A DNA stretch of 49,180 bases, taken from positions 1-49,180 of the forward strand of contig CALDHH010000075.1 of assembly GCA_937941575.1 (NCBI GenBank), read 5' to 3'. The number at the start of each line of letters is the position of its first letter. Positions within the stretch are counted from its first letter, which is position 1. A program made the position numbers and the translations under genes. The notes under the pieces are model-generated. The model was not told the DNA's origin and searched no databases. It was given only the letters and a program-made list of their open reading frames with translations. Below, piece by piece: positions 1,791 through 23,024 of this stretch. This DNA is from an uncultured Alphaproteobacteria bacterium (GTDB lineage: Bacteria > Pseudomonadota > Alphaproteobacteria > Micavibrionales > CSBR16-224).

Positions 1791-1792
1791 AG

Positions 1793-2389: not shown

Positions 2390-2390
2390 A

Positions 2391-3215: not shown

Positions 3216-3216
3216 A

Positions 3217-4350
3217 ATGACCATTATCGATGATGTAAAACTGACCCAAGATTTAATTAGATGCCCAAGTATTACACCAATCGAAGGCGGAGCATTAAAC
3301 CTATTACAAGGAATTCTTGAGAGCTTAGAATTTAATTGTCAGCGTTTAAAATTTGAAGATGTTGATAATCTTTATGCAAGATTTGGTGATAAACAACCAA
3401 ATTTCTGTTTTGCTGGTCATACAGATGTTGTACCGGTTGGAGATGAAGAATCTTGGTCTTTTAAGCCATTCTCTGGTGATATAATTAATAATGAGATTTG
3501 TGGCCGTGGTGCAGTAGATATGAAAGGTGGCATTGCTGCTTTTATATCTGCCCTATCTAAATTCCTAAATGACAATAAGAATTTTAATGGCTCGATATCT
3601 TTATTAATCACTGGTGATGAAGAAGGTATTGCCATTAATGGCACCAAAAAAGTCCTTGAATGGATGGCAGATAATGATGAAAAAATAGATTATTGCATCG
3701 TAGGAGAGCCAACCAACCCGAATATACTGGGCGAGATGGTCAAAATTGGACGTAGAGGCAGCCTTAATGGTGAAATTACTGTTATTGGTACCCAAGGTCA
3801 TGTTGCCTACCCGCATTTGGCGGATAATCCGATTCCTAAAATAACTAAGATAATCTCAAAACTAATTGAATTTAAACTTGATAACGGATCAGAATATTTC
3901 CAACCATCTAATTTAGAAATAACTTCAATCGATGTTGGTAATCCAACTACTAATGTTATCCCAGAAACTGCCACAGCTAAATTTAACATCAGATTTAATG
4001 ATATTCATTCTGGCAATAGTTTAAGCGATAAGATTAGATCTGAATTAGATAGTTTAGATATAGATTATAGTTTAGATATTAGAATCTCTGGCGAAAGCTT
4101 CGTTACTGATGATTTGAAATTACAAAAATTAATCTCCGAAGCAATTTATGAAGTTACAGAAATCAAAACTGATTTAAGCACAACAGGTGGAACATCTGAT
4201 GCAAGATTTATAACAAATTACTGTCCAGTAATCGAATTTGGTTTAACTGGACAAACAATGCATAAGGTGGATGAGAGGATTAATATAGATGATCTTCAAA
4301 CATTAACATCTATTTATTCAAAGATATTGGATAAGTTCTTTATTAACTAG
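3217..4350 (+). CDS. dapE: Succinyl-diaminopimelate desuccinylase (M20 peptidase family)
   Basis: Contains AGHTDVVP, GRGAVDMKGG, ITGDEEG, VGEPT and GTQGHVAYPHLADNP, which are the DapE signature blocks. It is 1 nt downstream of dapD. Confidence 0.95.
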   Translation: MTIIDDVKLTQDLIRCPSITPIEGGALNLLQGILESLEFNCQRLKFEDVDNLYARFGDKQPNFCFAGHTDVVPVGDEESWSFKPFSGDIINNEICGRGAVDMKGGIAAFISALSKFLNDNKNFNGSISLLITGDEEGIAINGTKKVLEWMADNDEKIDYCIVGEPTNPNILGEMVKIGRRGSLNGEITVIGTQGHVAYPHLADNPIPKITKIISKLIEFKLDNGSEYFQPSNLEITSIDVGNPTTNVIPETATAKFNIRFNDIHSGNSLSDKIRSELDSLDIDYSLDIRISGESFVTDDLKLQKLISEAIYEVTEIKTDLSTTGGTSDARFITNYCPVIEFGLTGQTMHKVDERINIDDLQTLTSIYSKILDKFFIN

Positions 4351-4384
4351 GACTACTATTACCTTTCAAAAAGTAATAAAAAAA

Positions 4385-4408
4385 GGCCGTATCAATTAAG
4401 ATACGGCC
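4385..4408. terminator. Bidirectional Rho-independent terminator between dapE (+) and the pilin gene (-)
   Basis: GGCCGTATC-AATTAA-GATACGGCC is a perfect 9-bp stem. It is flanked by A7 (4378-4384) upstream and TTTAATTTTT downstream, so a U-tract follows the hairpin on either strand. Confidence 0.85.
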
Positions 4409-4434
4409 TTTAATTTTTAAACTATTTCTAGCTA

Positions 4435-5202
4435 CTATTGGATTTTAACTAATAAACCACAATCTTTTGTAACAAGAGTTTCGTCGTAAGTATCACCAGA
4501 AGCACCACCTGTTAGACAGCTAGCAGCAACTCCGTAACCTTGTACGAAACCAGTTGTAGATTTACCGTCATCCATTTTACGGTCAATTTGTGCCGCACGG
4601 ATTGGAGTTAAAACCTGAGAACCAGCAGTTTGGCTAATCGCAGCATTTACGTTATTCTGTAATGATAATACTAATCCACTTGGTAAAACCGCACCACCAG
4701 CAACAGTAGCACCATCACCATGACCTACGTGAAAACCACCACCAATTTTAGCAGATGGGTGTGATTCACCCCATGCTGGAACTGTTGGAGTTGTCATTAA
4801 TGCATCAGATACACCAGCGATTAAATCAGCTTTTAATAGGTGTAACCAAAACATTGATGTTTCAGCGCCTACTGAAGTAACAGCAACACCAGCCTGATCA
4901 GTACCAGCAGCACCGGCAGTACCAACGATTGAGTCACCCGCAGTAGCTGCAGCTGGATCACAGTTAGTTGCACAGTTTGGTAAACGTGTAGATGCGTTTA
5001 ACATGTCACCTGGAATTGCACTAAAAGAATCACGGAAAGTAGTTGTTGCTGCTTCGTAAGATTTTACTTGCGCAATTGTCGCTGTTACACGAGCGTTTTC
5101 CATTAATTCTTGACCTTTTAAAATACCACCGATCAATAGACCAATAATTGTCATCACGATTGCTAGTTCAACAAGCGTAAAACCTTTTTCTGTTTTTTTC
5201 AT
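4435..5202 (-). CDS. pilA: Type IV prepilin, unusually large (255 aa)
   Basis: Class III signal MKKTEKG|FTLVELAIVMTIIGLLIGG has Gly(-1), Phe(+1), Glu(+5) and a hydrophobic alpha1-N helix. There is a C-x3-C pair (NCATNC) and a C-terminal C-x18-C loop (SCLTGG...KDCGLL). SD AAGGGGA lies upstream. Confidence 0.9.
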   Translation of the reverse strand: MKKTEKGFTLVELAIVMTIIGLLIGGILKGQELMENARVTATIAQVKSYEAATTTFRDSFSAIPGDMLNASTRLPNCATNCDPAAATAGDSIVGTAGAAGTDQAGVAVTSVGAETSMFWLHLLKADLIAGVSDALMTTPTVPAWGESHPSAKIGGGFHVGHGDGATVAGGAVLPSGLVLSLQNNVNAAISQTAGSQVLTPIRAAQIDRKMDDGKSTTGFVQGYGVAASCLTGGASGDTYDETLVTKDCGLLVKIQ

Positions 5203-5286
5203 ATTTATCCCCTTTACGTTATAATAAAAAAACTTATTAAATGATTTCTATAACACATTTATAAAAACCACTTATGCATAGTTAAT

Positions 5287-5299
5287 GTGAATAATTCAC
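5287..5299 (-). promoter_or_regulatory. Candidate operator: 13-nt perfect palindrome upstream of the pilin gene
   Basis: GTGAAT-A-ATTCAC lies 85 nt upstream of the pilin ATG in the 231-bp pilin/AraC intergenic region. This is motif evidence only, in an AT-rich background. Confidence 0.3.
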
Positions 5300-5433
5300 G
5301 ACTGCATGACTAATAATGTACCATAAATAGTAAACACTTCATTAACAAAGCACTATTCGACTACTCAATATGCTAACTTGATAAGTTGATAATAGTTAAG
5401 TCATTGAAATATAATAAATTGTATAAGTTAAGA

Positions 5434-6507
5434 TTATTCTTTATTTCTATAAATAGATGGAGATATACCAGTTATATCTTTGAAAACACGGTTAAATGAA
5501 GCCAAAGAGTTAAATCCAACCTCAAATGCAACTATTTTTACAGGAATCTCTGGATTATTTAGCATTCTTTTTGCATCTTCTACCCGATATCCGTTCAATA
5601 AATTGGGTACACTTTGATTAAATGCAATATTTACGACCCTTGATAATATATTTTCTGAAATATCTAGCTCCCTTGCCAGATCTGAACGGCTAAAAGACGG
5701 CTCATGATATAGTTTATCCAAGGTCATTAAGTTATTTATCTTATTTATAAGCTCTTTCTCTTCATCGTTAAGATCTTTTACATCTGATTTCTTCTTTTGA
5801 TTCTCTAATCTTAAGGATTGAGGATAGATTCTAAATAGAACAGTGGTTGCCAAATATACAAATAGTAATGAAATGGATACTCTTAATAATTCTGTCTCTT
5901 TTATATTAAAGTAATTTGTTGAATACATTAAGTTAACAGCAATAGAATATATATTCGTTGTTATGATCGATATTATAAGCCAATATTTTTCCTTACCCAT
6001 TTTTGATTTTATTAGATTCTTAAAGAAGCTATCGTGGAAAATTAACAAAAGAAGTATAAGACTTCCCAATGTTGAGCCTAATACATAGAGCCATTGAAAG
6101 AAATCATCACAATAACTAACAGCTTCATCACACATATTTGTATTTAACTTTGCCCCATAGACAATTAAGACAACAATTATTGGCATTAGAATGGTTAGAA
6201 ATTCTTTTTTCTTCGGTATATCTCCGAATCTACCAATTTGTAATATAAATAAATAGCTAACTGGGATACTAAGCGACCATAAGAACCATGAAGATAATCT
6301 TATCTCATCGTAAAAATCATTTAAACGGAATGATACATGCGAGATAAATAATAGAGCGAGTATAAAAAAGTATAATATAGCCAAAAAAGCCTGTCGCCAT
6401 TCTTTTAGACGCGATAATATATATACAAGTATTAAAACGCATTGAAATAAACCTGTAATAGCCAGCCATTCCACCGATGAAAATGTTAAATTATATATGA
6501 ATTGCAT
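5434..6507 (-). CDS. Membrane-embedded AraC/XylS-family transcriptional regulator (about 7 TM helices plus C-terminal HTH)
   Basis: About seven hydrophobic segments in residues 1-230, then a KKKSDVKDLNDEEKE linker. The AraC-type double HTH follows (SRSDLARELDISENILSRVV ... FEVGFNSLASFNRVFKDITGISPSIYR). Confidence 0.85.
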   Translation of the reverse strand: MQFIYNLTFSSVEWLAITGLFQCVLILVYILSRLKEWRQAFLAILYFFILALLFISHVSFRLNDFYDEIRLSSWFLWSLSIPVSYLFILQIGRFGDIPKKKEFLTILMPIIVVLIVYGAKLNTNMCDEAVSYCDDFFQWLYVLGSTLGSLILLLLIFHDSFFKNLIKSKMGKEKYWLIISIITTNIYSIAVNLMYSTNYFNIKETELLRVSISLLFVYLATTVLFRIYPQSLRLENQKKKSDVKDLNDEEKELINKINNLMTLDKLYHEPSFSRSDLARELDISENILSRVVNIAFNQSVPNLLNGYRVEDAKRMLNNPEIPVKIVAFEVGFNSLASFNRVFKDITGISPSIYRNKE

Positions 6508-6600
6508 TTTGAAACAGCTTTTTAACAGAGATTATTAATTTTCAATTATAATATATCCGTTTGAATAACAAGTAAAGCAGTTGAAATTCTATAGAAGCTA

Positions 6601-7335
6601 TTATTTATCTTCCCAGGTCTCACCAAATTTATCTTCGGCTGGAGAATCTTCTTGTAATCTTTCTTCAATAAATGATTGCATGAAGTTAACTTCGTTTGGG
6701 TGAAGATTCTGAGACTCGGTTGCCAATAAAGATTCAATAATTGTTTTTGCAGCTTCTTTTTCACCCAAAGCAGTTAAAACGAATATTGGCATCTGTCTTG
6801 CCCATATCGGCATATCTGGATTTTGTAAATCTGCTAGTTTATATGCAAGTTCTAATGCATATTCAAGATCATGCATTCTATATCTTGCAAGGAATACTGC
6901 ATGGGCAAGCCATCTCCATTTTTCACCTTCAGCATTATTTCCAGCTTCTGATAAATAATCAACAATTACATTAATGTCTTCTGGAACCTGAGTTGCACCA
7001 AAATAATAAGCAGCAGCCATTGAAACATGATCTGATTTTGCATCCATTTTATGAAGCAACCAAAACCAATGTTTTAACATTTGATAATCGTAATCTTTCA
7101 ACGGTGTAACACTGCCACCTGTATCACCAAGATTTTGTAATGTTAACGCACCCATTCTATAAGAAAATTGTGGGTCGCCCAATGTCATTGCCAAAGCACC
7201 TTGATAACTTGGTACTGGTGGAACGCCTGGCCATTTTGCTCTCATATTATTACTAAAAGCCCAATATAATCCATTTATAATTAAAAAGGAGAATAATAAT
7301 ATCTTAGATATGTTTAAAGATTTGTCGCTATTCAT
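6601..7335 (-). CDS. Hypothetical N-terminally anchored helical protein, translationally coupled to the ABC-2 permease
   Basis: One N-terminal TM (ILLFSFLIINGLYWAF), then a helical, repeat-like body. Its ATG overlaps the permease stop by 1 nt (TAATG at 7333-7337). I recognise no family. Confidence 0.6.
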   Translation of the reverse strand: MNSDKSLNISKILLFSFLIINGLYWAFSNNMRAKWPGVPPVPSYQGALAMTLGDPQFSYRMGALTLQNLGDTGGSVTPLKDYDYQMLKHWFWLLHKMDAKSDHVSMAAAYYFGATQVPEDINVIVDYLSEAGNNAEGEKWRWLAHAVFLARYRMHDLEYALELAYKLADLQNPDMPIWARQMPIFVLTALGEKEAAKTIIESLLATESQNLHPNEVNFMQSFIEERLQEDSPAEDKFGETWEDK

Positions 7336-8156
7336 TAAAACTGCCTACGTATTAAATCAAAATTTGCACATATAATTGTTAAGGTAATGAATACAAAACC
7401 CTGTAAGAATACAAATATTGGTAATCCCAAACTCGCAACTGCATCTATTATAAAATCACCTGTATTTTTAGAATACTCGACACTAGACATGCCATCAACT
7501 CCATATACTAACCAGCTTGTTTGACCCATAAGATCTAATCTTGGTATAATTATAGAGATAAATTCTAAGAAACTACCTAAAATTGACATTATAAAGCCAT
7601 CACCTGGTACATCTGCTATTCCAAGCAAAGTTCCAACCATTCTTGCCAAAGCATAGAAACCTAAACAAGCCAAAGCAGAACCTGCAGCACTTGATAAAAC
7701 CATTGAGAAGAACAATGCAAGACAAGAGATCAACATAAATTCAATTAAAATTGACCATCCCCAAACAAATAAACCATACATATCTGGCTTACCCAATACA
7801 AATACAGCTAGAATAACTGCAGCAGCTACTATTGCTGATAAAACAATAAACGCAAAAGCATGGCTTATTAAATATTTAGTCTTTGATATCGGTCTTGAAA
7901 GTAAAAATTCAACTTCTTTATTATCAAAAGCACGTCTTACATAGAATGATATAAATAACACTAGCCCTAAAACACCTAAGAATCTTAGACCACCTGAACC
8001 GAATACTACTGAGAAAGTTTGCTGTTCTGTCATAGATGCACTACCTAAAAACACAGCCATACTGCTACCCAACAAGATCATTAAGATCAATGTTATTACT
8101 AATTTATCTCTGAAAGCTGCTGTCAAAACATAGCTGACTAAAGGACCTGAAATCAT
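7335..8156 (-). CDS. ABC-2-type transporter permease-like membrane protein
   Basis: 273 aa with about six hydrophobic helices and no other domains, the size and topology typical of ABC-2 permeases. SD GGAG lies upstream. The assignment rests on architecture only. Confidence 0.6.
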   Translation of the reverse strand: MISGPLVSYVLTAAFRDKLVITLILMILLGSSMAVFLGSASMTEQQTFSVVFGSGGLRFLGVLGLVLFISFYVRRAFDNKEVEFLLSRPISKTKYLISHAFAFIVLSAIVAAAVILAVFVLGKPDMYGLFVWGWSILIEFMLISCLALFFSMVLSSAAGSALACLGFYALARMVGTLLGIADVPGDGFIMSILGSFLEFISIIIPRLDLMGQTSWLVYGVDGMSSVEYSKNTGDFIIDAVASLGLPIFVFLQGFVFITLTIICANFDLIRRQF

Positions 8157-8201
8157 TTTAACTCCATTATATCTTCTTAAAAAAGGTTACTCATTTAAAT
8201 A

Positions 8202-10016
8202 TTAAAGCCTGAAAGGGCGTCTATCTGAACCAAAGGTATTATATAAGTCTTTATCTGTTTGACTAATATTACTACCCGGTAAGATCGTAGATTTTATGAA
8301 TATAACAAGTTCGTTCTTGGCAATTCTATCACCCTTACTTTTGAAAAAGTTACCCAATACTGGTAAATCACCAATCACTGGAACACCCACTGTGTCAACT
8401 TCTGTACGATCTGTCATCAATCCGCCCATTACAATTACTTGACCTGATTGCATTTTTACAATTGAATCCATTTCTTGTACTGCAAGTTCAGGAATTAAGT
8501 TCTGAACTCCAGATAAAGCCGCAGCAGTCGCTGCAGGTAGAGCCGCAATTGTAATCGCAACACCTGGATCCGCAATACTACCAACTACTCTTGTAATTGT
8601 TGGTCTTAAGAACATTGAGATTTCATCAGTATCTGTATTAACAGATGGGATAACACTTAACAATATACCTTCTGGAACAGATTGCACATCACTATCAACT
8701 GTAATTGTTGTAGCACCAGTATCTTCATCTTCTTCAACATCAACATCAACATCAAAGAAAACTCGGTTTTCAACCACATTCAATATTGCAGCTTGGTTAT
8801 TTAATACTGTTATTCTTGGACTAGATAATGCTTTTACTGTACCAAATCTACTAATTGCACTTACCGCTGCTTGGATATCATTACCCGGATTAATTGCCGC
8901 AGTAAATACGTTACCAGGAGTTAATGTTGGAGAAAATACAGGTTGAGCCAAATCAACATCAAAGTTTAATAGGCCTGTTAAATTCATGGCACCACCACCA
9001 GCAGAACCCCAATCAATACCAGCAGCGAATTCATCCAAAAGACTTACTTCTAAAATCTTTGCCTCTACTAATACTTGTGTAGTTACAGCTTTTCTAAGTT
9101 TCTTTAGATATTCTTTTAAAATCTTATGCTGTCTTGCACTTGTGAATACAGATATTATTCCAGAGCTACGACTTACAGAGAATTGTGAAGCACCTGCACC
9201 AGCAGTGGCAGCAACGGCTGCAACTGGAGCTGCGCCAGCTTGTACTGTTAAACTTGGCGGAGCATTTGGATTACTTGCATCGCCACCCGCAGCAACTCTT
9301 GGTTGAGCAATCGGGTTAGCCAATGTTGCAAGAGATGTATAATTATCTGTTGATGCAAGAATTGATTCTAATGTCGCTTCTAATTCTGTCCAGAAATCTG
9401 TTTCCATTGATGTTTCAACACCAGATGCTGATCCAACATCGGCACCTTCACCAGATACAACTGATACATCGATACTAATTGAACTTTCTGTAGTTCTACT
9501 AACGTTCACGTAGTCAATTCTGTAATTTTTCATGAAAGGTCTATCAATTTCAACTCTCAAAAGACCATTCTTATAAGTATAACGCAGACCTGACATACTA
9601 CATATTCTATGAATAATTTCGTCAAAAGGTCTGTTTCTTGCTGTAAACACGATTGAACCTGAAATTTGTGGATCCAGTTCTAAATCGATTTCTGCTTGGT
9701 CAGCAAGTTCGAATAAAATATCTCTTAATGGTACAGTTTGGTTAACTGATATTGATACCAATGGCATGCTCTCAGTTTCTCCACCTGGCTCAACAACATG
9801 AGTTGCCAATTCTGGAATACCACTATCACTATCCTGAGGTAGATCTCTTGGAGCCATTGATCTTCTGTAATCAGAAGCATCTAACGATCCACTTCTATCA
9901 TGTTTCAACTGGCTTTCAACCATTTCACATGCATTCAAGAAAAACACTGAAGATACAATCACTGCAACCTTAGTAATTTTATTAACAATTTTGAAATTAT
10001 TAAATATATTTGTCAT
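8202..10016 (-). CDS. pilQ: Secretin (PilQ/MshL/GspD family), probable lipoprotein
   Basis: C-terminal secretin signature VPVIGDLPVLGNFFKSKGDRIAKNELVIFIKSTIL. N-terminal signal ends in a lipobox-like FLNAC. An Ala/Pro-rich linker (AAGGDASNPNAPPSLTVQAGAAPVAAVAATAGAGAS) separates the N domains. Confidence 0.9.
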   Translation of the reverse strand: MTNIFNNFKIVNKITKVAVIVSSVFFLNACEMVESQLKHDRSGSLDASDYRRSMAPRDLPQDSDSGIPELATHVVEPGGETESMPLVSISVNQTVPLRDILFELADQAEIDLELDPQISGSIVFTARNRPFDEIIHRICSMSGLRYTYKNGLLRVEIDRPFMKNYRIDYVNVSRTTESSISIDVSVVSGEGADVGSASGVETSMETDFWTELEATLESILASTDNYTSLATLANPIAQPRVAAGGDASNPNAPPSLTVQAGAAPVAAVAATAGAGASQFSVSRSSGIISVFTSARQHKILKEYLKKLRKAVTTQVLVEAKILEVSLLDEFAAGIDWGSAGGGAMNLTGLLNFDVDLAQPVFSPTLTPGNVFTAAINPGNDIQAAVSAISRFGTVKALSSPRITVLNNQAAILNVVENRVFFDVDVDVEEDEDTGATTITVDSDVQSVPEGILLSVIPSVNTDTDEISMFLRPTITRVVGSIADPGVAITIAALPAATAAALSGVQNLIPELAVQEMDSIVKMQSGQVIVMGGLMTDRTEVDTVGVPVIGDLPVLGNFFKSKGDRIAKNELVIFIKSTILPGSNISQTDKDLYNTFGSDRRPFRL

Positions 10017-10132
10017 TTAAACTAAACCCTTTTACTTCCCTAAAACCGATATTCAATATGATAAAGAATATATCACAATAAAAAAACCCTTTTTTTCTTT
10101 TTTCTTCAAATAGTTCTAATATTTCTTTAAAT

Positions 10133-11263
10133 CTATAAAGAAAGCCTCGATGTATCTATCTGTGGAAGCCCAGATGATGAGTCTTTGCCCCCTAATTCGT
10201 ATTGTTGTATTTTCATCTTCATATCTGATGAAATATCCGCTTCTACAATAGCTGTTTCACTAGTTATTGTATTTTCTGTGTATAATTTGAACAAAGATTG
10301 ATCAAAAGTTACCATTCCAAGAGCATTATTCTTTGCCATTACATCTGATATACCTTTGGTCTTTCCTTTTAATATTAATTCTTTTACTAATGCTTCGTTT
10401 AGCAACACCTCTAATGCCACAACTACTCCGCCACCTTTTTTAGCAACAAGCCTTTGAGATACGATTGATCTTAAATTCATTGATAAAGCAATTCTTATTT
10501 GCATTTGTCTTTCTTCTGGGAAGAAATTAATTATACGCTCAATTGCTTGCGATGCATTATTTGTATGGATTGTACTTAAGCATAAATGCCCAGTTTCTGC
10601 AGCACTTATTGCTTGCTCCATTACTTCTTCATCTCTTACTTCACCGACCAAGATAACATCTGGCTTTTGTCTTAATGCATTTTTTAATGCAACATTATAT
10701 GAAACGGTATCAATACCAACTTCACGTTGAGTAATAATACAGCCTTTATGAGCATGATAATATTCAACCGGATCTTCAATTGTTATGATATGACCAGAAC
10801 CCTTTGTATTACGGTAATCCATCATTGATGCCAAAGATGTTGATTTACCAGATGAAGTCACACCAGAAATTAAAATAAGGCCACGTTTTTCCATAGCCAG
10901 CATTTTGAAGACTTCAGGCAGGTTTAATTCTTCAAAACTAGGTATATCAGAAGTAATACGTCTGATAACCATTCCTGGATGTTGTCTTTGCTTTAAAACA
11001 TTTATACGAAATCTACCTTGTTGTCCCATATCTAATGCTAGATTCAATTCCATATTTGCATCAAATTCACGTCTTTGACGGCTGGTTAAAACTTCACTTA
11101 ACATCCCCTCAAGATCTTCAACTTCTAGTTTTTCATCTGTAATTGTGCTAAGTTTATTATCTTTACGAATTGTTGGTGGAACCCCTACTGTTAAGTATAA
11201 ATCAGTTGAGGACTGACTAACCATCTCATCCAGATATGTATATATTGCAATCCCACTACTCAA
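10133..11263 (-). CDS. pilU: PilU-like PilT-family hexameric ATPase
   Basis: Walker A GVTSSGKST, Asp box ITIEDPVEY, Walker B DVILVGEVRD and His box GHLCLSTIHT. N-terminus resembles PilU (DLYLTVGVPPTIR) and it lacks the AIRNLIRE motif. TTG start overlaps the pilT stop (TTGA). Confidence 0.85.
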   Translation of the reverse strand: MSSGIAIYTYLDEMVSQSSTDLYLTVGVPPTIRKDNKLSTITDEKLEVEDLEGMLSEVLTSRQRREFDANMELNLALDMGQQGRFRINVLKQRQHPGMVIRRITSDIPSFEELNLPEVFKMLAMEKRGLILISGVTSSGKSTSLASMMDYRNTKGSGHIITIEDPVEYYHAHKGCIITQREVGIDTVSYNVALKNALRQKPDVILVGEVRDEEVMEQAISAAETGHLCLSTIHTNNASQAIERIINFFPEERQMQIRIALSMNLRSIVSQRLVAKKGGGVVVALEVLLNEALVKELILKGKTKGISDVMAKNNALGMVTFDQSLFKLYTENTITSETAIVEADISSDMKMKIQQYELGGKDSSSGLPQIDTSRLSL

Positions 11264-12465
11264 AACGAATATCCTCCATCCATTTCTGAATCAACTTGAC
11301 TAGCCGGTATCTCTTGGACTGGGCTAGGATTATTTGGATTATGCTGAGGTGTAGCTTGCTTCTGTGCTGTCTCTGGCTTTCTCTCATCGCTATTTTCTTC
11401 ACCATGGCCATCATCAGATGCGATATCACCCATTTCATCAGCACCATCTTTCAATGCGTCTTGAGCAACTTCTTCTGAAATAAGATCAGCATCAAGTAAA
11501 TCATTTAAAGAATCTTCCATGGTCTGCATCCCGTATCTTGCACCGGTCTGAATCATTGAATAAACTTGGGCTAACTGATTTTCTCTAATCAAGTTACGAA
11601 CAGCATTTGTTCCAACCATGATCTCATGCGCGGCTACACGGCCACCAGTTTTTCTTTTTAATAGTTTCTGAGCAATTACACCCTGAACAGAACTTGATAA
11701 CATGGCCCGAACCATACCTTTTTCTGCAGCAGGGAAAACGTCAATAATACGGTCAATAGTCTTTGCAGCAGAACTTGAGTGAAGAGTTCCAAAAACCAAG
11801 TGACCTGTCTCAGCAGCAGTTAGAGCAAGTGATATTGTTTCATAATCACGCATCTCACCAACTAGAATAACATCTGGATCTTCACGCAAGGCACTTTTCA
11901 AAGCTTTAGAGAATGATTTGGTATCCGTACCGACTTCTCTGTGATTAACCAAGCTTTTATTTGATTGGTGATAAAATTCAACCGGATCTTCAATTGTTAG
12001 AATATGTTCATTTCTTGTATCATTAATATAATCGATCATTGATGCCAATGTAGTTGATTTACCACTACCCGTTGGACCAGTTACCAATACGATACCCTGT
12101 TTCACTTCCGATAAATGGCGCATAATCGGTGGAAGACCTAAATCTGCCATTTTGGGGATTTTAGTTGGAATCACACGAAATACTGCCGCGGCCCCCACTC
12201 TATTTGTAAAAGCATTCACACGAAAACGAGCATTCTCTCCAAATGAAATCGCAAAATCTATTTCTTGCTCTTTCTCATATTCGGCTCTTTGCTCATCGGT
12301 CATGATTGAATATAACATCGATTTAATACTATCGCTTGTTAACTCTTCTGACTTAATTTTACGAAGTTCACCATCTACTCTTATTATCGCGGGGTTTGAA
12401 CCACTCAAATGTAAATCTGATGCATCGTTTTTCATTGTAAACGAAAGTAATTGTGTAATATCCAA
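11260..12465 (-). CDS. pilT: PilT twitching-motility (retraction-type) ATPase with a ~60-aa acidic C-terminal extension
   Basis: Starts MDITQLLSF...ASDLHLS like canonical PilT. Walker A GPTGSGKST, LTIEDPVEF, DVILVGEMRD, GHLVFGTLHS and the PilT-specific AVRNLIRE are present. TTG start is preceded by a strong SD AGGGGGA. Residues ~341-401 are an extra low-complexity acidic/Pro tail. Confidence 0.92.
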   Translation of the reverse strand: MDITQLLSFTMKNDASDLHLSGSNPAIIRVDGELRKIKSEELTSDSIKSMLYSIMTDEQRAEYEKEQEIDFAISFGENARFRVNAFTNRVGAAAVFRVIPTKIPKMADLGLPPIMRHLSEVKQGIVLVTGPTGSGKSTTLASMIDYINDTRNEHILTIEDPVEFYHQSNKSLVNHREVGTDTKSFSKALKSALREDPDVILVGEMRDYETISLALTAAETGHLVFGTLHSSSAAKTIDRIIDVFPAAEKGMVRAMLSSSVQGVIAQKLLKRKTGGRVAAHEIMVGTNAVRNLIRENQLAQVYSMIQTGARYGMQTMEDSLNDLLDADLISEEVAQDALKDGADEMGDIASDDGHGEENSDERKPETAQKQATPQHNPNNPSPVQEIPASQVDSEMDGGYSF

Positions 12466-12603
12466 TCTTTTATCCCCCTTGAAAGATTTAGAAAATTTAT
12501 AGCTAAGCCTAAAAATAATCCATATAAGTTAATAAATTATTATCATATAAAAAAAACATTATAGCTATGTCTAAATAAACTATTTAAGCTTATTTTAAAT
12601 AAG

Positions 12604-13431
12604 CTACATTCCCATTTTGTAAAAAACTCCACCATCGAAGATTAAGCAAATTAAAAATGCCAATATCAAAGATGGCCCGAATGGAAATTCTTCTCTACCT
12701 GTAATTTTTTTCCAGAATAAAGATATAAAGATACCACTTAGACCAGAGATTAATAAGAACATCGGTGAAGATAAATTACCGATCCATAAACCAGCTACAA
12801 AGAAAAACTTAACATCACCAAGTCCCATTGGCTCTCGTTTCATTATCTTCATAAATATTGCTCTTAATAAAAATGATCCTATCCCGAAAGTTAGAGCACT
12901 TATTAGCGCGTATTTACCTGTATCTTTTAAATAATAAACAAATTCACCGCTATAACATGCTTCAATCAAGAGCATGATTAAACCCAATATAAATAAAGAT
13001 AAATTAAGTCTATTTGGTATAATTTGAAATTCAAAATCAATTGCAATTATTGCAACCATTATGAAAGACATTAAGAATAATGGGATTAATCTATAATCTA
13101 ATGGAAAGATAAGAAAGAATATAAGGCATAATAACGCAGTAGATAGTTCAATCACTGGGTATCTGATGCTAATTTTTTTCTTACAATATCTACATTTTCC
13201 GCCTGAGAATAACCAAGAGAACACTGGAAATAAATCCAATATACCCAGAACATGGTTACAACTTGGGCAATGCGAACGGCTTATTTTTTCTTTATCTAGC
13301 TTCTTCTTTGGAGATATCATAGATATTCCCCTTGGCATGCGATAGCTAAGCGCTGTCGCGAAGCTACCTAAACACATACCAATTACGAATACCGTTATTA
13401 CTTCTAACGCAAAGATAATTTCTGAATACAT
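12604..13431 (-). CDS. pilD: Prepilin peptidase / N-methyltransferase (A24 family)
   Basis: Cytoplasmic CPSC...CRYC tetracysteine motif, multiple TM helices, and catalytic Asp motifs IAIDFEFQIIPN and MGLGDVKFF. Confidence 0.92.
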   Translation of the reverse strand: MYSEIIFALEVITVFVIGMCLGSFATALSYRMPRGISMISPKKKLDKEKISRSHCPSCNHVLGILDLFPVFSWLFSGGKCRYCKKKISIRYPVIELSTALLCLIFFLIFPLDYRLIPLFLMSFIMVAIIAIDFEFQIIPNRLNLSLFILGLIMLLIEACYSGEFVYYLKDTGKYALISALTFGIGSFLLRAIFMKIMKREPMGLGDVKFFFVAGLWIGNLSSPMFLLISGLSGIFISLFWKKITGREEFPFGPSLILAFLICLIFDGGVFYKMGM

Positions 13432-13455
13432 TTATAGTTATTTCCAAAAATTATA

Positions 13456-15015
13456 CTATTGAATAGCAATAAGGCGTTTTTTAATCTGTTTCACTGGAAT
13501 TACACCTTTGTAATCGCCTGCGTAATACAGATTTAAAGCTTCTCTATAAAGATGAGCAGCTGAACTCTTTTTGCCCATACGATCATAGATAACAGCTCTA
13601 TTAAATATATATCCAACATTCTTATCATCTAAGCTAGATGCAATATTTAGATATTTTATCGCTTTACCATACTCATTTAAATCACCATATGCGCTCCCCA
13701 ATTGACCAGCAACTCCGGCATTACCTGGGTAAGAGCCTCTTAATTGTTGTAATTTATCCGCTGCAAATCTTGGAGATTCTTTTCTTAGAACACCCAACAT
13801 ATTTGTTAGAGCATCAAGATTTTTTGGATCTCTTTTTAAAGTTTTCTCATATGTTTTTAAAGCTGAAGCTGTATCACCACTTCTTTGATAAGCAATAGCA
13901 AGACCCATAAGAACTCTTGAATCTTTTGGTTTATCTGATCTTAAATCTTGGAACATTTCCAATGCAGTTGCGTATCTTCCTTCTGATAAAGCACGTCTTG
14001 CCGCAGATAGTCTTGCATCAACGCTATTTGACCCTCTACTTCTTTTTAATACAAAATATTTAGGATTTAAGTCACGAATTACAGCCGGCTTTTCTAATTC
14101 ATTTAAAGTACTGCTTCTATTTGGACCTTGACCAAGTGGTGCGATCGGGGCATCGCCATCAATAACACCTAATGTTTGTGCTTGTTCTAAAGATTCTGCT
14201 GGCGGTGCCATTTCTTTTAAAGTATCAGTATTCGCAATTAATGCTTTCTCTGCATCAGTTGGCTCTGTAATATTTTCAATTGCTTCCATTGGTATATCTT
14301 GCACAACATCAATATTCTCAACTGGTATTCCACCCATCATTTGATTAGGGTCCATAGCCATTTGCTCTAAACCAGCATCCATTGACATCATTTGATCTGG
14401 CACAGGAATTCCCTCTGGCATATTCTTTATATCTGTTATTTCTCCATCAGCAAATTCCGATAGCTCTGACATTGCATCAGAGGTCTTTTCTTCTGCACCA
14501 GACAATATTTGGCCTGTTGTATCTGCTAATTTTTGAGCACTACCTTCTGTAATTTCAACGATATCTCCAGTTGTCTCGTTAATTGATGAAATAGTACCAT
14601 CAAGCTCGGTAGTAAATTCACCACTATCCAAAGCAGAGACAGTTTCTTCTATCACACCATCTTCTGCAGGAATCGGTGGGAAATCAACATCTGATATTTC
14701 ATTTAAATCACCTAGACCTGATAAATCTGAATCTACTGCAACATTATCCATGCCAGTATTCATTGGATCAATTTGATTATCCATTCCTGTGTTCATTGGA
14801 TCCATATTACCTTGGGCAACTATTCCATTATTTGGAGCAGGTTTATCACCAGATGTAAAAAAGTAATATGCGCCACCAAGTGCCAGAGCCAAAGATACAA
14901 AGCCACCTAATACTAAGGCTTTCTTCTTTCCTTTTCCGCCTGATCTTTCTCCATCAAACTCAATTTCGTCACCAAGGTTAAAATCAACTTCTTCTGTCAT
15001 GTTATCGTCACTCAT
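13456..15015 (-). CDS. TM-anchored acidic-linker plus TPR protein (MshN/PilF-like pilus assembly factor)
   Basis: KGKKK followed by a TM (ALVLGGFVSLALALGGAYYFF), then a ~270-aa highly acidic region with a DPMNTGMDN tandem repeat. The C-terminal ~190 aa have TPR-like periodicity (GRYATALEMFQDL, GDTASALKTYEKTLKRDPKN, YGKAIKYLNIASSLD). Confidence 0.7.
   Translation of the reverse strand: MSDDNMTEEVDFNLGDEIEFDGERSGGKGKKKALVLGGFVSLALALGGAYYFFTSGDKPAPNNGIVAQGNMDPMNTGMDNQIDPMNTGMDNVAVDSDLSGLGDLNEISDVDFPPIPAEDGVIEETVSALDSGEFTTELDGTISSINETTGDIVEITEGSAQKLADTTGQILSGAEEKTSDAMSELSEFADGEITDIKNMPEGIPVPDQMMSMDAGLEQMAMDPNQMMGGIPVENIDVVQDIPMEAIENITEPTDAEKALIANTDTLKEMAPPAESLEQAQTLGVIDGDAPIAPLGQGPNRSSTLNELEKPAVIRDLNPKYFVLKRSRGSNSVDARLSAARRALSEGRYATALEMFQDLRSDKPKDSRVLMGLAIAYQRSGDTASALKTYEKTLKRDPKNLDALTNMLGVLRKESPRFAADKLQQLRGSYPGNAGVAGQLGSAYGDLNEYGKAIKYLNIASSLDDKNVGYIFNRAVIYDRMGKKSSAAHLYREALNLYYAGDYKGVIPVKQIKKRLIAIQ
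14743..14802 (-). repeat. Tandem 33-nt coding repeat (2 copies) inside the TPR-protein gene
   Basis: attatccatgccagtattcattggatc (14743-14769) vs attatccattcctgtgttcattggatc (14776-14802). They encode DPMNTGMDN twice. Confidence 0.8.
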
Positions 15016-15048
15016 TTTACTTTTCTTTCAATAAATATATTTATAAAT

Positions 15049-15786
15049 TTATGCTGCTTTTTGACTATCTATAGTCTCCAAGAACGCTCTCTCAAGATAT
15101 TCCTGCCCTGATTGCTTCTTTAACTCTGCTGGAGTTCCAACAAATAAAAGATCGCCGCCATGAATTACACTTACTCTGTCACAAATTTCATCCATATCCG
15201 CTAAAATATGTGAGCTCATAAACACTGTGATACCTTCTTTTTTACATTTCAATATCTCATCTTTAACATTTGCTCTAGCTCTTGGATCTAGACCACTCAT
15301 CGGCTCATCTAAAATCAGCAAAGGACATTTTGTTAATAGAGTTCCTAATAATCCAACTTTTTGGCGCATACCTTTTGAGTAAGTATTTACTCTGCGTCTT
15401 AAAGCTTTCTCATCTAAAGATACTCTTTCTGCAGCTTCAATAATCTCTTTTTCATCAATCTCTCTATTATATAACTTTAACGAGAATTTAATGAACTCTA
15501 TACCAGATAAAAAATTTGGTGGCTCAAAACGCTCTGGTAAGTAAGCAAGTTTCTCTTTGCTAGATTTATCCAAATCATTGCCACCGAAAAACTTAATTGA
15601 TCCAGAGCTTGAAGCCATTAAGCCAAGCAATACTTTAATAAATGTTGTTTTACCAACACCGTTAAGCCCCATAAGCCCAAAAATCTCTCCTGCACCTACT
15701 TCAAAATTAATGTCTCTTATTACGTCATCACCGCCGTAATTCGCAGCAATATCCTTTACTAATAAAACACTATCTTTTTTAACCAT
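15049..15786 (-). CDS. ABC transporter ATP-binding protein (ABC-2/DrrA-like single NBD)
   Basis: Walker A GLNGVGKTT, signature-like YSKGMRQKVGL, Walker B LLILDEPMSGLD and H-loop SSHIL. 245 aa with no fused TM domain. Confidence 0.9.
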   Translation of the reverse strand: MVKKDSVLLVKDIAANYGGDDVIRDINFEVGAGEIFGLMGLNGVGKTTFIKVLLGLMASSSGSIKFFGGNDLDKSSKEKLAYLPERFEPPNFLSGIEFIKFSLKLYNREIDEKEIIEAAERVSLDEKALRRRVNTYSKGMRQKVGLLGTLLTKCPLLILDEPMSGLDPRARANVKDEILKCKKEGITVFMSSHILADMDEICDRVSVIHGGDLLFVGTPAELKKQSGQEYLERAFLETIDSQKAA

Positions 15787-15815
15787 TATTTCTTTTCCTA
15801 ATTTTATATTATTAA

Positions 15816-16478
15816 TTAACCTGGCAGTAAAATACCACTTTGAATATCATATACTTGATGTGGTCTCATATTGATTGTGATAATTTTATTAAACACAGAA
15901 TCAAACCATTCCAAATATACACTATCTCTTTTTACATGTATTCCAACGATCTCTGGCAATAAATAACCTGGGGTTAGTCTTTTACCATTAATCCATACAA
16001 TCCAATTATTTGAAGAATTATAAAGCAATCCATCAACATCAATTATACGCTTAGGAGCTTCTTCACCTTCTCCACCAAGTGTCGCATCTTTACCAGATAA
16101 GGCTCTTTCTAATGTCAGAACCTCTAAAGGAGTTAAGAATAGAGATGAAGAGAAGCCTGGTGTATTATTCGTATAAATTCTTGCTTTAACCTCTGCCAAT
16201 AGTTTTGCAGCTGTTTCTTTTCTTTTTGCTTCTTTTTCTTCCGGTGTCTCTTCTGTTACAGATTCAGCAACCTCTACTGGTGCAGACTGCCCCGGAGGTA
16301 CAGATGGATCAATCATATCATCTGGGTTGGAAGCCTGCATATCCATTTGTTGCATCTGTTGTTCCATTTGCAATTGCTCAGCAGTTTGCGCATTAACCGA
16401 CTGATTTACAAATATGAAACATATTGTAAGCAGAGCTGCAAATCCTGATAATCTTTTAATTTTATTTAAAAATAACAT
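15816..16478 (-). CDS. Secreted PilP/MshK-like pilus alignment protein
   Basis: Signal peptide (ALLTICFIFVNQSVNA|QT), Q/M/E-rich linker and a C-terminal small beta domain (WIVWINGKRLTPGYLLPEIVGIHVKRDSVYLEW). The domain is reminiscent of PilP/MshK/GspC-HR, and the gene sits after the pilO-like gene. Confidence 0.55.
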   Translation of the reverse strand: MLFLNKIKRLSGFAALLTICFIFVNQSVNAQTAEQLQMEQQMQQMDMQASNPDDMIDPSVPPGQSAPVEVAESVTEETPEEKEAKRKETAAKLLAEVKARIYTNNTPGFSSSLFLTPLEVLTLERALSGKDATLGGEGEEAPKRIIDVDGLLYNSSNNWIVWINGKRLTPGYLLPEIVGIHVKRDSVYLEWFDSVFNKIITINMRPHQVYDIQSGILLPG

Positions 16479-16497
16479 TCTATTTAAACCTTATAAA

Positions 16498-17151
16498 CTA
16501 TTTAACAAAGCCAGATTGACCGTTTTTATCACCTGGTGTCGCCTGCAAACTTTGCCAATCGAAAACAAGTTTTCCCTCCATTATTGGCTCAGCTTCACCA
16601 TCTACAATCTTATTAAGAAGGTCATTATCAACTTTACCTACTTTTTCAAGCTTGAACATATGTATTCTTGTATGGCCAGGAAAAGATTTATCTATCCATT
16701 CAATAAATTGATAAATATCCGTGTCTAAAAATGCATTTAATCTGTTTAGCTCAATTCTACTATTGATTAACTTATATCCTGCAATTTTGGCATCTTTATT
16801 TTCAATTTCTTGTAGCGCACTAATTTTATATTCAAAACCTGATACTCCTGATGCACGTCTTATTTCTTCTAATACGTCACCCACCATAAATCTATCTTGA
16901 TTAATAAAGAAACCATCTTGTTCCATATTTTCAAAATCACCCAAGCTGGCTCTTAATGCTTTCAGTTCTTCCTTAATATTCAAAATTTTACTTCTAAATC
17001 CAGATATATCCGTTTTCAATGTGCTTAATTCTTTTTCTGTATCTTTTCTAAGTGGTTCAACCCATAAGAAGAAGGCACCTGCTAAGGATACAGCAATGAA
17101 TATTAATACCGATATAATAGCTAATCTTCGTACACCAATTAATTTTATCAT
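16498..17151 (-). CDS. PilO/GspM/MshJ-like bitopic inner-membrane protein
   Basis: Short N-terminus, one TM (LAIISVLIFIAVSLAGAFFLW), a coiled-coil (EKELSTLKTDISGFRSKILNIKEELKALR) and a ~100-aa periplasmic domain. ATGA overlap with the upstream gene. Confidence 0.65.
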   Translation of the reverse strand: MIKLIGVRRLAIISVLIFIAVSLAGAFFLWVEPLRKDTEKELSTLKTDISGFRSKILNIKEELKALRASLGDFENMEQDGFFINQDRFMVGDVLEEIRRASGVSGFEYKISALQEIENKDAKIAGYKLINSRIELNRLNAFLDTDIYQFIEWIDKSFPGHTRIHMFKLEKVGKVDNDLLNKIVDGEAEPIMEGKLVFDWQSLQATPGDKNGQSGFVK

Positions 17152-18824
17152 AACGGCACTCCTATGACTTTAAATCTTGCCATTTCTTCATCTTTAGCAC
17201 TAGATCCTCCACCGACAGAAGATCCTCCACCATCCGACGCAGTACCAATTTTAGCCGAGAAAACACCCGTTCTAGATACACCACCGAATTGCTTCTCCAT
17301 TGTTATTTCATGATCTGGCAAAGCACCTCTTAATCTTTTTAAGAAAGATTCAGTTTCAGCAACTTTTTCTTCCAAAGGCATATCATTCGGTAAAGAATAA
17401 GAGAAGAATAGTTCAAAATAACCGTTATCAGCAAGCTTCTTTGAACCCTTACCGGTCATTTTAGCCATAATTTTCTTTAACACATCTGATTGTTTTTTAG
17501 CGCCACCATTTTTATCCGGAAGATCAATTTTTGCATTTGGAACATGTCTATAACTCATATCTGCTAAAAACACTTCTGATCCTAAATTATCTCTAACCAC
17601 TTTTAAAACAGGCTCTGGACTTATTGAGTTCTCTACCAATAAACCCTTCACTGCAAGCGACCCCCTAACCACATCTGGTTTTACAGGGACAGCAGCAAAT
17701 ATAGCTGCCTCTTGATCATATTCTCTTTTTAAAAGATTATATTGTGTCTTATTTTGGGCGATTTCTGAGTGAACTTCTCTATATTCAGCAAAGCTACTAT
17801 AAAGCATGTAAGACAGACCGATTGCAGCAAGAAGCAACAATATACTTCCGAATTTAACAGCCATCCTTGGCAATACAATTTTTGAGATCTCTTCAATTTT
17901 TAAATTTAAAGAAGGACCGCCTTTTTTACCAATCCAACCTGCATGAACTGCATCTGAATATTTTGGTTTAACACCTTTGCCGTATTTAAAGCCAATTAAC
18001 TTTCCGGCTTCATGAACCGTCATTGGATAAAAATTACTTACAGGCAAACCAACAGATTGCATTGCTTCTTTTTCAGCCGCACCGGATACAACAAAAACAT
18101 CCAATCCTTCAGATGGGTTATAACCAAATCTTGCAACATAACTTAGAGTAGCTTTAAATTCTTTGGCAACCTCTTCTGCCCATGCAGTACCGCTTGATAC
18201 ATTTTCTGCCATTGGCGTCAGCCTTGTCAAAGCAAGGTCACCATCTTTAATTACAACTTGCCTTAAACCACCTGTTTCATGTTGACCTATAAATACGATC
18301 CATCTAGACGCCATCTCATTAGTGCTGTTTAAATTCTTCTTTGCTAATTCTTGTAACATGCTTGCAGATTCTACTGGTAATAGACAAACACCCGATACAT
18401 GGACACCAGCTTCGAAAATGGCATTAATAATCTTGTTAATGTTTTCAGTCTCTGGCAAACCAGCCAATAAATAAGAATCCGGTGAATCTACCTTCATCAG
18501 TTTATCACGTTTCTTCTTACCTTTAAGCTCTAAAGCTCCGCGGATCTTCGTATTTGAAAAAGCAGAATCAATCTTTCTCTTAAGAATTTTAGGTTTATCC
18601 AATGAACTTACTTTTGGTAATGTTTCCTTACGATAATGCTGTTCAACAACATCAAAAACAAGCCTTACAGATTTACCGCTATTTTTTTCGGTAAATACAT
18701 TTATCAGCTGCTCTTCAAAATCCGGAACAGACCAAGGAATTGAACATTCATGTTCAACATTCTTACCTGATGATAAGTATAAAACTACACCTTCATCTCC
18801 AATTAAAAGTACTCTTTTAGCCAC
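17148..18824 (-). CDS. PilM-PilN fusion (MshI/GspL-like) inner-membrane assembly protein
   Basis: A ~320-aa cytoplasmic actin-like/GspL-like domain (VLLIGDEGVVLY..., VSGVCLLPVESASML, LRQVVIKDGDLALTRL). A single TM (FGSILLLLAAIGLSYMLYSSF) and a ~210-aa periplasmic part with a Gly/Ser tail follow. GTG start. Confidence 0.7.
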   Translation of the reverse strand: MAKRVLLIGDEGVVLYLSSGKNVEHECSIPWSVPDFEEQLINVFTEKNSGKSVRLVFDVVEQHYRKETLPKVSSLDKPKILKRKIDSAFSNTKIRGALELKGKKKRDKLMKVDSPDSYLLAGLPETENINKIINAIFEAGVHVSGVCLLPVESASMLQELAKKNLNSTNEMASRWIVFIGQHETGGLRQVVIKDGDLALTRLTPMAENVSSGTAWAEEVAKEFKATLSYVARFGYNPSEGLDVFVVSGAAEKEAMQSVGLPVSNFYPMTVHEAGKLIGFKYGKGVKPKYSDAVHAGWIGKKGGPSLNLKIEEISKIVLPRMAVKFGSILLLLAAIGLSYMLYSSFAEYREVHSEIAQNKTQYNLLKREYDQEAAIFAAVPVKPDVVRGSLAVKGLLVENSISPEPVLKVVRDNLGSEVFLADMSYRHVPNAKIDLPDKNGGAKKQSDVLKKIMAKMTGKGSKKLADNGYFELFFSYSLPNDMPLEEKVAETESFLKRLRGALPDHEITMEKQFGGVSRTGVFSAKIGTASDGGGSSVGGGSSAKDEEMARFKVIGVPL

Positions 18825-18859
18825 GAGAACCCCACTTATTTATAAAATATAATTTCAAT

Positions 18860-20068
18860 TTATATCCCCATATTCGAAAAGCTATTGTAAATTGGACCAA
18901 ATACAGCAGCCGCAATCCATAACATAATACCACCAAGAATAACCGTCATCATTGGCTCAATCATCTGAATCATTGAATCGACCGCTTCGTTCACATCTTT
19001 ATCATAAAATTCTGCAACTTGTTCTAAAACTCCAGTCAAGTTACCAGATTCCTCACCAATCTTCACCATTCTTACCACCAATGATGGAAACTCACCTGAG
19101 TTATTTAAGGCTGTTGATATTGGGTTACCTTCTTTTACCTGTTCTCTTACACGCTCTAACGCCTCTTGCATCACAAGATTACCGGCAGTTTTCTGAGCAG
19201 ATTCTAGACATCTCAAGATCTCCAAACCACTACTAAACAATACACCAAATGTTTGGGCAAATCTTGATAATGAAATCTTTCTTATCAAAATCCCCATTAC
19301 CGGCATATTCAGAGCAAGCTTATCAGTTTGATATCTAAAACCTGTTGAAACTGCGCGTCCAATTTTTATACTGGCGATAAACACCACTATTCCGATACCC
19401 ACATATAGACCATTAGCAACGAAGAAGTCCGAAGTTGCGATCAATGAAGTGGTTATCATACCTAATTCCTGATCCATACTTTCTAAGAATCCTAAAACCT
19501 GCGGTACAACATATGCCATCATCAAAGTTACAACACCGAACATAACCACACCCAGTATTTTTGGATATTTTGTGGCCTGTTTAACTTTTGAATCCATCGC
19601 ATCAGTCCATTTAAGGTGATGGATAAGCTGAGTAAATGAATTGGATAAGTTACCGGTTTCTTCACCAGCACCAATTAATGAGATAAATATATTAGTAAAT
19701 ACAGATGGGTGATTTGACATCGCCTCAGATAATGAATTACCCTCTGATACATCTCTGTATACTTCGGTCATGATATCTCTAAGCTTGGCTGATTCAGTTG
19801 TGTCACGGATATCAGACAAACCATCCATTAATGGTACACCAGCTTTCTGTAGCTGTTCTAGATGTACGAATAATTGCACCATGTCACGAGTTTTAATTTT
19901 TGCTTTAAATGCCGCTTTTTTCTTTTTGGTTTCCATGGATTTTGCTTCGATAAGCTCCATGCCACGTTCAGATAATTGTTGGGCTAAATCTTTTTCGTTC
20001 GCCGCAGATATAGAGCCTCTAACGGCCCTACCTTGGTTATCAATCGCGCGATAATTATATTTATTCAT
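18860..20068 (-). CDS. pilC: Type IV pilus / T2SS platform protein (PilC/GspF family)
   Basis: 402 aa with a duplicated GspF-type cytoplasmic domain (LSEAMSNHPSVFTNIFISLIGAGEETGNL and ISTALNNSGEFPSLVVRMVKIGEESGNL) and three TM segments. Confidence 0.92.
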   Translation of the reverse strand: MNKYNYRAIDNQGRAVRGSISAANEKDLAQQLSERGMELIEAKSMETKKKKAAFKAKIKTRDMVQLFVHLEQLQKAGVPLMDGLSDIRDTTESAKLRDIMTEVYRDVSEGNSLSEAMSNHPSVFTNIFISLIGAGEETGNLSNSFTQLIHHLKWTDAMDSKVKQATKYPKILGVVMFGVVTLMMAYVVPQVLGFLESMDQELGMITTSLIATSDFFVANGLYVGIGIVVFIASIKIGRAVSTGFRYQTDKLALNMPVMGILIRKISLSRFAQTFGVLFSSGLEILRCLESAQKTAGNLVMQEALERVREQVKEGNPISTALNNSGEFPSLVVRMVKIGEESGNLTGVLEQVAEFYDKDVNEAVDSMIQMIEPMMTVILGGIMLWIAAAVFGPIYNSFSNMGI

Positions 20069-20253
20069 TCCCTAAATTTCCCCGTAAGATAATATAATTT
20101 AACAATAATACACTAACTAATTTAAGATAATGACAAAACTTTACCAATTAGTTACCGTTTTAAAAATTTATTATATTAATAGTCATTTATTGAAATATAA
20201 ATAACATATTTTCATTCTATAATTAAATAACACCTTTGGTAAAGGGTAAAAAA

Positions 20254-20276
20254 GCCATTAATTAGTAATTAATGGC
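20254..20276 (-). terminator. Rho-independent terminator after fadE, upstream boundary of the pilus island
   Basis: GCCATTAATTA-g-TAATTAATGGC is a perfect 11-bp stem. It is flanked by A6 (20248-20253) and T6 (20277-20282), so a U-tract follows on either strand. Confidence 0.8.
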
Positions 20277-20303
20277 TTTTTTATTTAATACTGATTCTAA
20301 AAA

Positions 20304-22994: not shown

Positions 22995-23024
22995 TTTTAG
23001 AATAAAGTTTTTAAGGATAAAGAA

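Follow-up and report, generated by a model that had tools for sequence, protein, structure and literature searches.

The stretch of DNA analyzed here, the window, is a contig of 49,180 nucleotides (CALDHH010000075.1) from an uncultured alphaproteobacterium. Its minus strand carries a contiguous type IV pilus cluster at 4435-20068, with all 14 genes intact (Table 1), and this locus would be the main part of the type IV pilus operon of Micavibrio-like Alphaproteobacteria. From the letters alone, an original prediction had noticed that the cluster encodes just two secretion-type ATPases, PilT and PilU, both associated with pilus retraction, and that PilT has an additional acidic tail. It left two options for pilus extension: either the gene for a PilB-type motor is unlinked, or one of the two PilT paralogues does the work. 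The comparison of syntenic loci suggests that a local change in gene order is behind the apparent lack of PilB. The PilT tail is found in all the closest homologues, and it is its last few residues, more than its acidity, that are conserved.

The identity of the two motors is clear. Both pass the curated cutoff of the PilT/PilU family model, NCBIfam TIGR01420 (319.1 bits, as a whole-protein score), and the models for PilB, GspE and TfpB give 94-166 bits for both proteins against cutoffs of 630-850; for PilB and GspE, with cutoffs of 675 and 630, the scores are 112-166 bits. The TadA-family model gives 55-57 bits, with a cutoff of 373. The 401-aa protein begins MDITQLLSF, its residues 1-339 align residue for residue with the PilT of P. 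aeruginosa (3JVU), it has a Walker A motif at 130-137 (GPTGSGKS at 130) and AVRNLIRE at 288-295, and its core is confident in the AlphaFold2 (AF2) model. For the 376-aa protein the top solved-structure match is a PilU, 9N32, and a motif check finds nothing like AIRNLIRE in it. By Pfam neither ATPase has an MshEN, GSPII or other N-terminal domain, both start at the region equivalent to N2D, and neither has a CxxC pair of the kind that makes the tetracysteine zinc motif of extension ATPases; there are no cysteines at all in PilT, and just C175 and C228 in PilU. All these assignments agree with the original prediction.

Regarding the ends of these two proteins, the gene call in the database gives PilT 391 aa from an internal ATG, M11 (site 12436-12465). 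However, the first 10 residues of the 401-aa version are homologous to residues 1-10 of PilT, which places the true start at the TTG of position 12465. The start of pilU and the stop of pilT share 4 nt. PilU itself ends in IDTSRLSL (10133-10160), for which the clade consensus is [IV]DTS[KR]LSL after a short variable linker, in 22 out of 22 loci from the set L001-L030. In an alignment of 85 sequences, the window PilT has 3 private changes, all conservative, at columns that are at least 97% conserved. This number is inside the range of 0-5 that we observe for relatives that do carry mshE, and on this comparison the window PilT does not look repurposed.

We find no other T2SSE ATPase in the 49-kb window, either with Pfam scans of its 37 open reading frames (ORFs) of at least 120 aa, or with tblastn using two MshE proteins (E ≤ 10). 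To this extent, PilT and PilU are indeed the only motors of the cluster. The situation in the relatives is very different. Syntenic loci were gathered using PilT homologues, a scan of a genome collection with the 558-aa protein of the cluster, a metagenome scan with the window PilC, and the closest homologues of the 558-aa protein; MshE was not used as a query to find them, so that the selection is not biased towards the presence of mshE. Gene order is uniform across all the syntenic loci, and of the 25 distinct contigs that continue past the start of pilC, 24 have the gene of an ATPase of 590-730 aa, with MshEN and T2SSE domains, directly upstream of it. This MshE was extracted from 24 loci (some loci duplicate one contig), and 23 of these show two CxxC. 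This MshE/PilB-type motor is the standard type of extension motor (PMC11656802). In most relatives it ends in LNF[AS]DRM, and all three motors (PilT, PilU and the relatives' MshE) thus carry conserved C-terminal tips.

The linkage extends to the nearest relatives. L038, with a PilT 83% identical to that of the window over the 245 aa present on its contig, and L039 both have mshE next to pilC, and all relatives with a PilT 66-83% identical keep a dedicated MshE. The proteins P0122 and P0124, which are among the MshE most similar to that of the relative L001, also adjoin pilC. In one relative lineage, the gene directly upstream of mshE encodes a GGDEF-EAL protein (L034 3885-6065; L035 2479-4659), which fits control of a motor with an MshEN domain by cyclic di-GMP. 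The sole exception among the 25 contigs is L026 (Ga0206918_1243, 1-4814), where rpoZ and a 232-aa ORF are found upstream of pilC instead of mshE. Because L026 also lacks mshE at that position, displacement has happened more than once, and the link between mshE and pilC is, going by these gene orders, broken at least 2 times, in the window and in L026. We observe also that in L026 one ORF of 776 aa covers both pilC and the PilM/N-like gene, which is probably due to a frameshift or a sequencing error.

The position that mshE has in relatives is taken in the window by the gene of a FadE-type acyl-CoA dehydrogenase, a protein from outside the pilus system that has no match in any relative's locus. 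Between this gene and pilC, directly after the fadE stop, there is a perfect 18-nt inverted repeat at 20247-20283 with runs of A and T on its flanks. This inverted repeat is probably a bidirectional terminator between fadE and the pilC operon; a scan for promoter and terminator consensus sequences did not call the hairpin, which has few G-C pairs. The tblastn search of the window with two MshE queries (E ≤ 10) reports no remnant of mshE here, and we did not find any insertion sequence element, long repeat or gene fragment that would mark the junction. The genes found upstream of mshE in relatives are the housekeeping genes sspB, an ABC-2 transporter and a cobT-like gene; none of them is present in the window, which left no inversion partner to trace. 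We also looked for the MshE of this genome, low in G+C (GC) content, among 120 MshE homologues by means of amino-acid composition, which did not discriminate between them.

The other feature of interest is the C-terminal tail of PilT. It begins past the last helix of the PilT fold and takes the protein about 60 residues beyond the canonical length of ~345 aa, without conflict with any catalytic or family-defining motif. The window PilT has 106 residues after the AIRNLIRE-type motif, as opposed to 49-60 in most PilT representatives of canonical length, and among the 61 residues of the tail (341-401) there are 14 D/E, 3 K/R and 6 P. Thus, a tail rich in Glu, Asp and Pro and absent from canonical PilT, as had been described, is a real feature of this protein. 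In the AF2 model, calculated with the 85-sequence alignment, the predicted local distance difference test (pLDDT) is below 50 at residues 346-363 and 383-401.

For the comparison of tails we used the 120 closest PilT homologues, with 64-77% identity, and counted tail length from window residue 335. All 120 have an extension, with a length that varies from 28 to 103 aa. The C-terminus is GYSF in 99 of them and GYTF in another 11, and every one of the 120 ends in [YFI][ST]F. The same type of ending is found before the stop codon in the 22 complete pilT genes (out of 22) of the relatives' loci. The acidic start of the tail is conserved as well, with consensus ALKDSxDDxxD and a median charge of -4 across the first 22 tail residues. 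In addition, a motif [SPA]PP[VM] appears about 12 residues from the PilT end in 49/120 homologues, when 5.7 are expected from shuffles, an excess of ~9-fold; its counterpart in the window is SPV (11290-11330). For more distant proteins, the representatives at 50% identity are mostly long fusions or odd sequences together with canonical PilTs, and their tail distribution is informative only in P0297, a PilT 49% identical to that of the window that also ends in RGYSF (its contig is short and uninformative).

The rest of the tail varies. Its net charge goes from -19 to +2 among the homologues, with a median of -2 compared with -12 for the window, and its composition is rich in Ala, Pro and Gly in relatives of high GC, and in Asp, Glu, Asn, Ser and Pro in the window. 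Since charge and composition vary that widely, strong acidity is, on the sequences compared, a feature of this lineage and not of the family, and of the acidic tail originally proposed it is only the acidic start that holds for the whole clade. That the tail serves in interaction or regulation, as had been proposed, is plausible. Most of it is poorly conserved and of low complexity, but the acidic start and the GYSF end are conserved in the clade. The pattern looks like a disordered linker with a short docking motif. We infer a role of the tail in tethering PilT, or in regulating it, on the cytoplasmic side of the machine: most likely, the GYSF tip would dock on a cytoplasmic partner at the machine base and so hold or regulate PilT there, and the candidates for that partner would be the PilM-like domain, PilC, PilU and MshE. 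In the literature searched we found no description of a PilT tail of this kind, or of the motor set of such a system.

A natural candidate as binder of a C-terminal peptide is also encoded in the operon, the TPR protein. We considered it as a partner for the PilT C-terminal peptide and rejected it, as its N-terminus has positive charges and then a transmembrane segment, an arrangement that would leave the TPRs in the periplasm.

The explanation that we consider probable for all these observations is that a rearrangement has separated mshE from the cluster, so that it most likely lies on another contig of the source genome, and that the PilT tail is a clade-wide tether with a GYSF tip. The ancestral order would be mshE, pilC, the pilM/N fusion, two small proteins, the ABC ATPase, the TPR protein, pilD, pilT, pilU, the secretin, two membrane proteins, araC and the pilin. 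An ATPase of the MshE type, which has both the MshEN domain and a tetracysteine motif of the zinc type, would power extension, and retraction would depend on PilT assisted by PilU, as in other PilT/PilU systems. The rearrangement that parted mshE from pilC would leave only the two retraction motors in the cluster, with the extension motor presumably encoded elsewhere, on another contig. An unlinked extension motor is the most likely option because MshE is co-conserved with the island, including in the closest relatives, and we also count in its favor that many MshE and PilT homologues have a longest contig of equal size. Three points weigh against this explanation or parts of it. No mshE of the source genome is seen in the data, which cover one 49-kb contig; the GYSF tip is undocked in the AF2 monomer model; and the TPR protein, a natural candidate for this docking, appears to hold its TPR domain in the periplasm.

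As mshE is missing where relatives keep it and also from all of the 49-kb contig, the extension ATPase could have been lost outright, leaving a recently orphaned cluster that no longer assembles pili, and a genome with a GC content as low as 34.6% may be in reduction. But all 14 genes of the cluster are intact, with a conservation similar to that observed among other relatives, PilT does not show any relaxed or unusual evolution, and the lineage of L026 also lacks the adjacency, which makes simple relocation a recurrent event. We regard outright loss as improbable. That PilT or PilU could be bifunctional and drive both extension and retraction has a precedent in the superfamily, as CpaF of Tad pili is one ATPase that does both jobs (PMC12019362), and the machine genes of the window have no linked ATPases other than those of the PilT family. 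However, relatives with a PilT 66-83% identical all retain a separate extension motor, MshE, neither PilT nor PilU has distinctive substitutions and PilT keeps its AIRNLIRE-type motif. The system is also unlike Tad in having one platform protein and not two (TadB and TadC), and the TadA/CpaF-type models stay far below their cutoffs. We give very little credence to a bifunctional motor, and it is just as hard to believe the specific version in which MshE is truly lost and the tailed PilT, alone or with PilU, performs extension and retraction. Thus, between the two options of the original prediction, it is the unlinked motor that the comparison favors. Extension driven by a paralogue goes against what is found in the relatives, where the island is co-conserved with a genuine extension ATPase that has the MshEN domain and, in almost all cases, two CxxC.

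An artifact is another possibility to consider: the pilC-fadE junction could result from a chimeric contig, and mshE would in reality be adjacent to pilC. The window is a single metagenome-type contig, and it is one of just two exceptions among 26 loci. Yet at the junction the fadE stop is complete and the pilC start is intact, with a perfect hairpin and a 235-bp spacer between them, and there is no repeat and no truncated gene. GC content is equal on both sides, and the tetranucleotide correlation across the junction (r = 0.98) is the same as the value within each side, and this uniformity argues against a chimeric join, so that we find an artifact very hard to credit. As for the tail, it could be a functionless low-complexity extension that is tolerated at a C-terminus, as one may suspect from a length, a net charge and a composition that vary so freely, the last one tracking genomic GC. 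Against this, GYSF or GYTF is present at the end of 110 of the 120 homologues and [YFI][ST]F in all of them despite a linker that varies freely; the conserved acidic start and the PPV motif, the latter well above shuffles, count against it as well. We deem a functionless tail unlikely, and we retain as our preferred explanation the separation of mshE by rearrangement together with a PilT tethered by its tip.

Table 1. Genes and features of the pilus cluster and of its junction with fadE, in coordinates of the window.
Position	Strand	Feature	Evidence
4435-5202	-	Prepilin, 255 aa, MKKTEKGFTLVELAIV...	Pfam N_methyl
5434-6507	-	AraC-family regulator at the end of the cluster	Pfam HTH_18; syntenic in L001, L002
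6601-8156 (7335-8156; 6601-7335)	-	Two conserved membrane proteins, 273 and 244 aa	Conserved in relatives
8202-10016	-	Secretin, closest model MshL	Pfam Secretin
10133-11263	-	PilU orthologue, 376 aa	TIGR01420 424.3 bits; 9N32 366 bits
11260-12465	-	PilT orthologue, 401 aa, TTG start	TIGR01420 484.3 bits; 3JVU 437 bits
11263-11445	-	PilT tail, residues 341-401: predicted disordered linker, conserved acidic start, DGGYSF tip	AF2 pLDDT; homologue comparison
12604-13431	-	Prepilin peptidase PilD	Pfam A24_N_bact, Peptidase_A24
13456-15015	-	TPR protein with N-terminal transmembrane segment, MshN-like position	TPR families; KGKKK then hydrophobic segment
15049-15786	-	ABC-transporter ATPase inside the pilus operon	Pfam ABC_tran 1.1e-24
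15816-17151	-	Two conserved proteins, 217 and 220 aa, at expected PilO/PilP-like positions	Kept in every relative
17148-18824	-	558-aa fusion: PilM-like actin fold, transmembrane helix, PilN/GspL-like domain	AF2, Foldseek
18860-20068	-	PilC/GspF-type platform protein, first operon gene here	Pfam T2SSF 1.3e-57
20069-20303		Junction at the position of the relatives' mshE: AT-rich spacer, inverted repeat, 235 bp	Sequence, tblastn, tetranucleotides
20304-22592	-	FadE-type acyl-CoA dehydrogenase in mshE's position, outside the pilus system	Pfam ACDH_C 1.4e-85

The other genes of the cluster are those of a pilus machine, and some of their products fall below the curated cutoffs or match no family. 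The only platform (T2SSF) protein, PilC, scores 334 bits with the GspF model (cutoff 424), and the secretin 209.6 bits with the MshL model TIGR02519 (cutoff 250.2). The 558-aa protein does not match any Pfam or NCBIfam family, or any solved-structure sequence in a profile search, and its PilM-like fold is revealed, with high confidence, by structure prediction only. Its AF2 model (mean pLDDT 86) has what is predicted to be an actin-like N-terminal domain, then a long transmembrane or coiled helix, and then a PilN/GspL-like domain. The top Foldseek matches are PilM structures, 5EOU and 2YCH (E ~2e-9), with FtsA and the cytoplasmic domain of GspL next in rank, and the best matches of the N-terminal domain are the PilM proteins of P. 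aeruginosa and T. thermophilus. The two proteins of 217 and 220 aa do not match any Pfam or NCBIfam family. The TPR part of the TPR protein is, from its N-terminal sequence, probably periplasmic.

The conservation of the window cluster genes is similar to that between other relatives; in the comparison with L001 the identities are 71% for PilT, 68% for both PilU and PilC, and 64% for the ABC ATPase. The ABC ATPase is 59-71% identical in all relatives that reach its position, and together with the two membrane proteins it is kept inside the pilus operon in every relative. The 273-aa membrane protein is weakly similar to ABC-2 permeases (ABC2_membrane_4, E = 0.008), and its orthologue in L002 has a weak match to ABC2_membrane_2. 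These three proteins may be reminiscent of PilGHI, the ABC transporter in the pil cluster of Myxococcus xanthus. A six-frame motif scan reports the 255-aa prepilin as the only one in the window, and L002 has four prepilin-type genes in tandem at 17409-21212. Pilins in this type of system have an unusual size, with 255-279 aa and in some cases above 470 aa.

The window has a GC content of 34.6%, and every relative with the cluster has 41-62%. The closest PilT in a collection of 5.8 billion proteins is 74-77% identical. Because of this low identity and of a GC content far below that of its relatives, the source appears to be a distinct, poorly sampled lineage of low GC. Elsewhere in the window we find dnaA (36062-37468), a plus-strand ORF of 1174 aa (23468-26992) with no Pfam match at E ≤ 1e-5, and two small ORFs (~22812-23330) between that ORF and fadE. 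The genome paper of Micavibrio aeruginosavorus mentions that pil genes are dispersed and that a type II secretion system is incomplete, and does not discuss these motors (PMC3189940).

How does this system compare with those already known? As in the type IVa pilus (T4aP) systems of P. aeruginosa, V. cholerae and A. baylyi, pilT and pilU are adjacent, PilT carries the AIRNLIRE-type motif, and PilU lacks the motif and has a C-terminal extension of its own (bioRxiv 10.1101/2025.10.30.685630). According to the same work, PilT bridges PilU to PilC, the C-terminus of V. cholerae PilU mediates the contacts between PilT and PilU, and an extended C-terminus was deemed unique to PilU. In the window, on the other hand, PilT itself has a disordered tail of ~60 aa that ends in GYSF, and the operon of the machine includes the motor genes, which come after pilD and before the secretin gene. 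A precedent for this tail is the PilU of M. xanthus, for which a clade-specific disordered C-terminal region of ~112 aa is reported, with a proposed regulatory or partner-binding role (PMC13584747). Both are clade-specific extensions with predicted disorder at the C-terminus of a PilT-family retraction ATPase. They differ in that the extension is on PilT here and on PilU there, in unrelated lineages, and in that a conserved terminal motif such as GYSF is not mentioned in the available text on M. xanthus.

The machine itself is more similar to the mannose-sensitive hemagglutinin (MSHA) pilus of V. cholerae, a pilus with PilT-dependent dynamics (PMC11656802). The relatives' motor has an MshEN domain, the secretin is nearest to the MshL model, and there is a TPR protein in the operon. 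But the window secretin and platform protein fall under the cutoffs of MshL and GspF, the cluster has its own pilT and pilU, when MSHA retraction depends on an unlinked PilT, the pilus genes are accompanied by those of an ABC ATPase and of two membrane proteins, and mshE is not linked, although it is adjacent in 24 of 25 relatives. We describe the clade as Micavibrio-like Alphaproteobacteria, probably predatory, with a hybrid MSH/T4aP-type machine.

Pili polymerized by PilT would be important if true, since a PilT driving both extension and retraction would be the first bifunctional PilT, but the comparison with relatives speaks against such a motor. On the whole the system is ordinary, and the tail with its near-invariant GYSF is the one mildly new feature. 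How motors are exchanged at the base of the pilus machine is an open question in the pilus field. If the GYSF tip does dock on the PilM-like ring, on PilC or on the other motors, it would give a way to approach the exchange between the extension and the retraction motors at that base.

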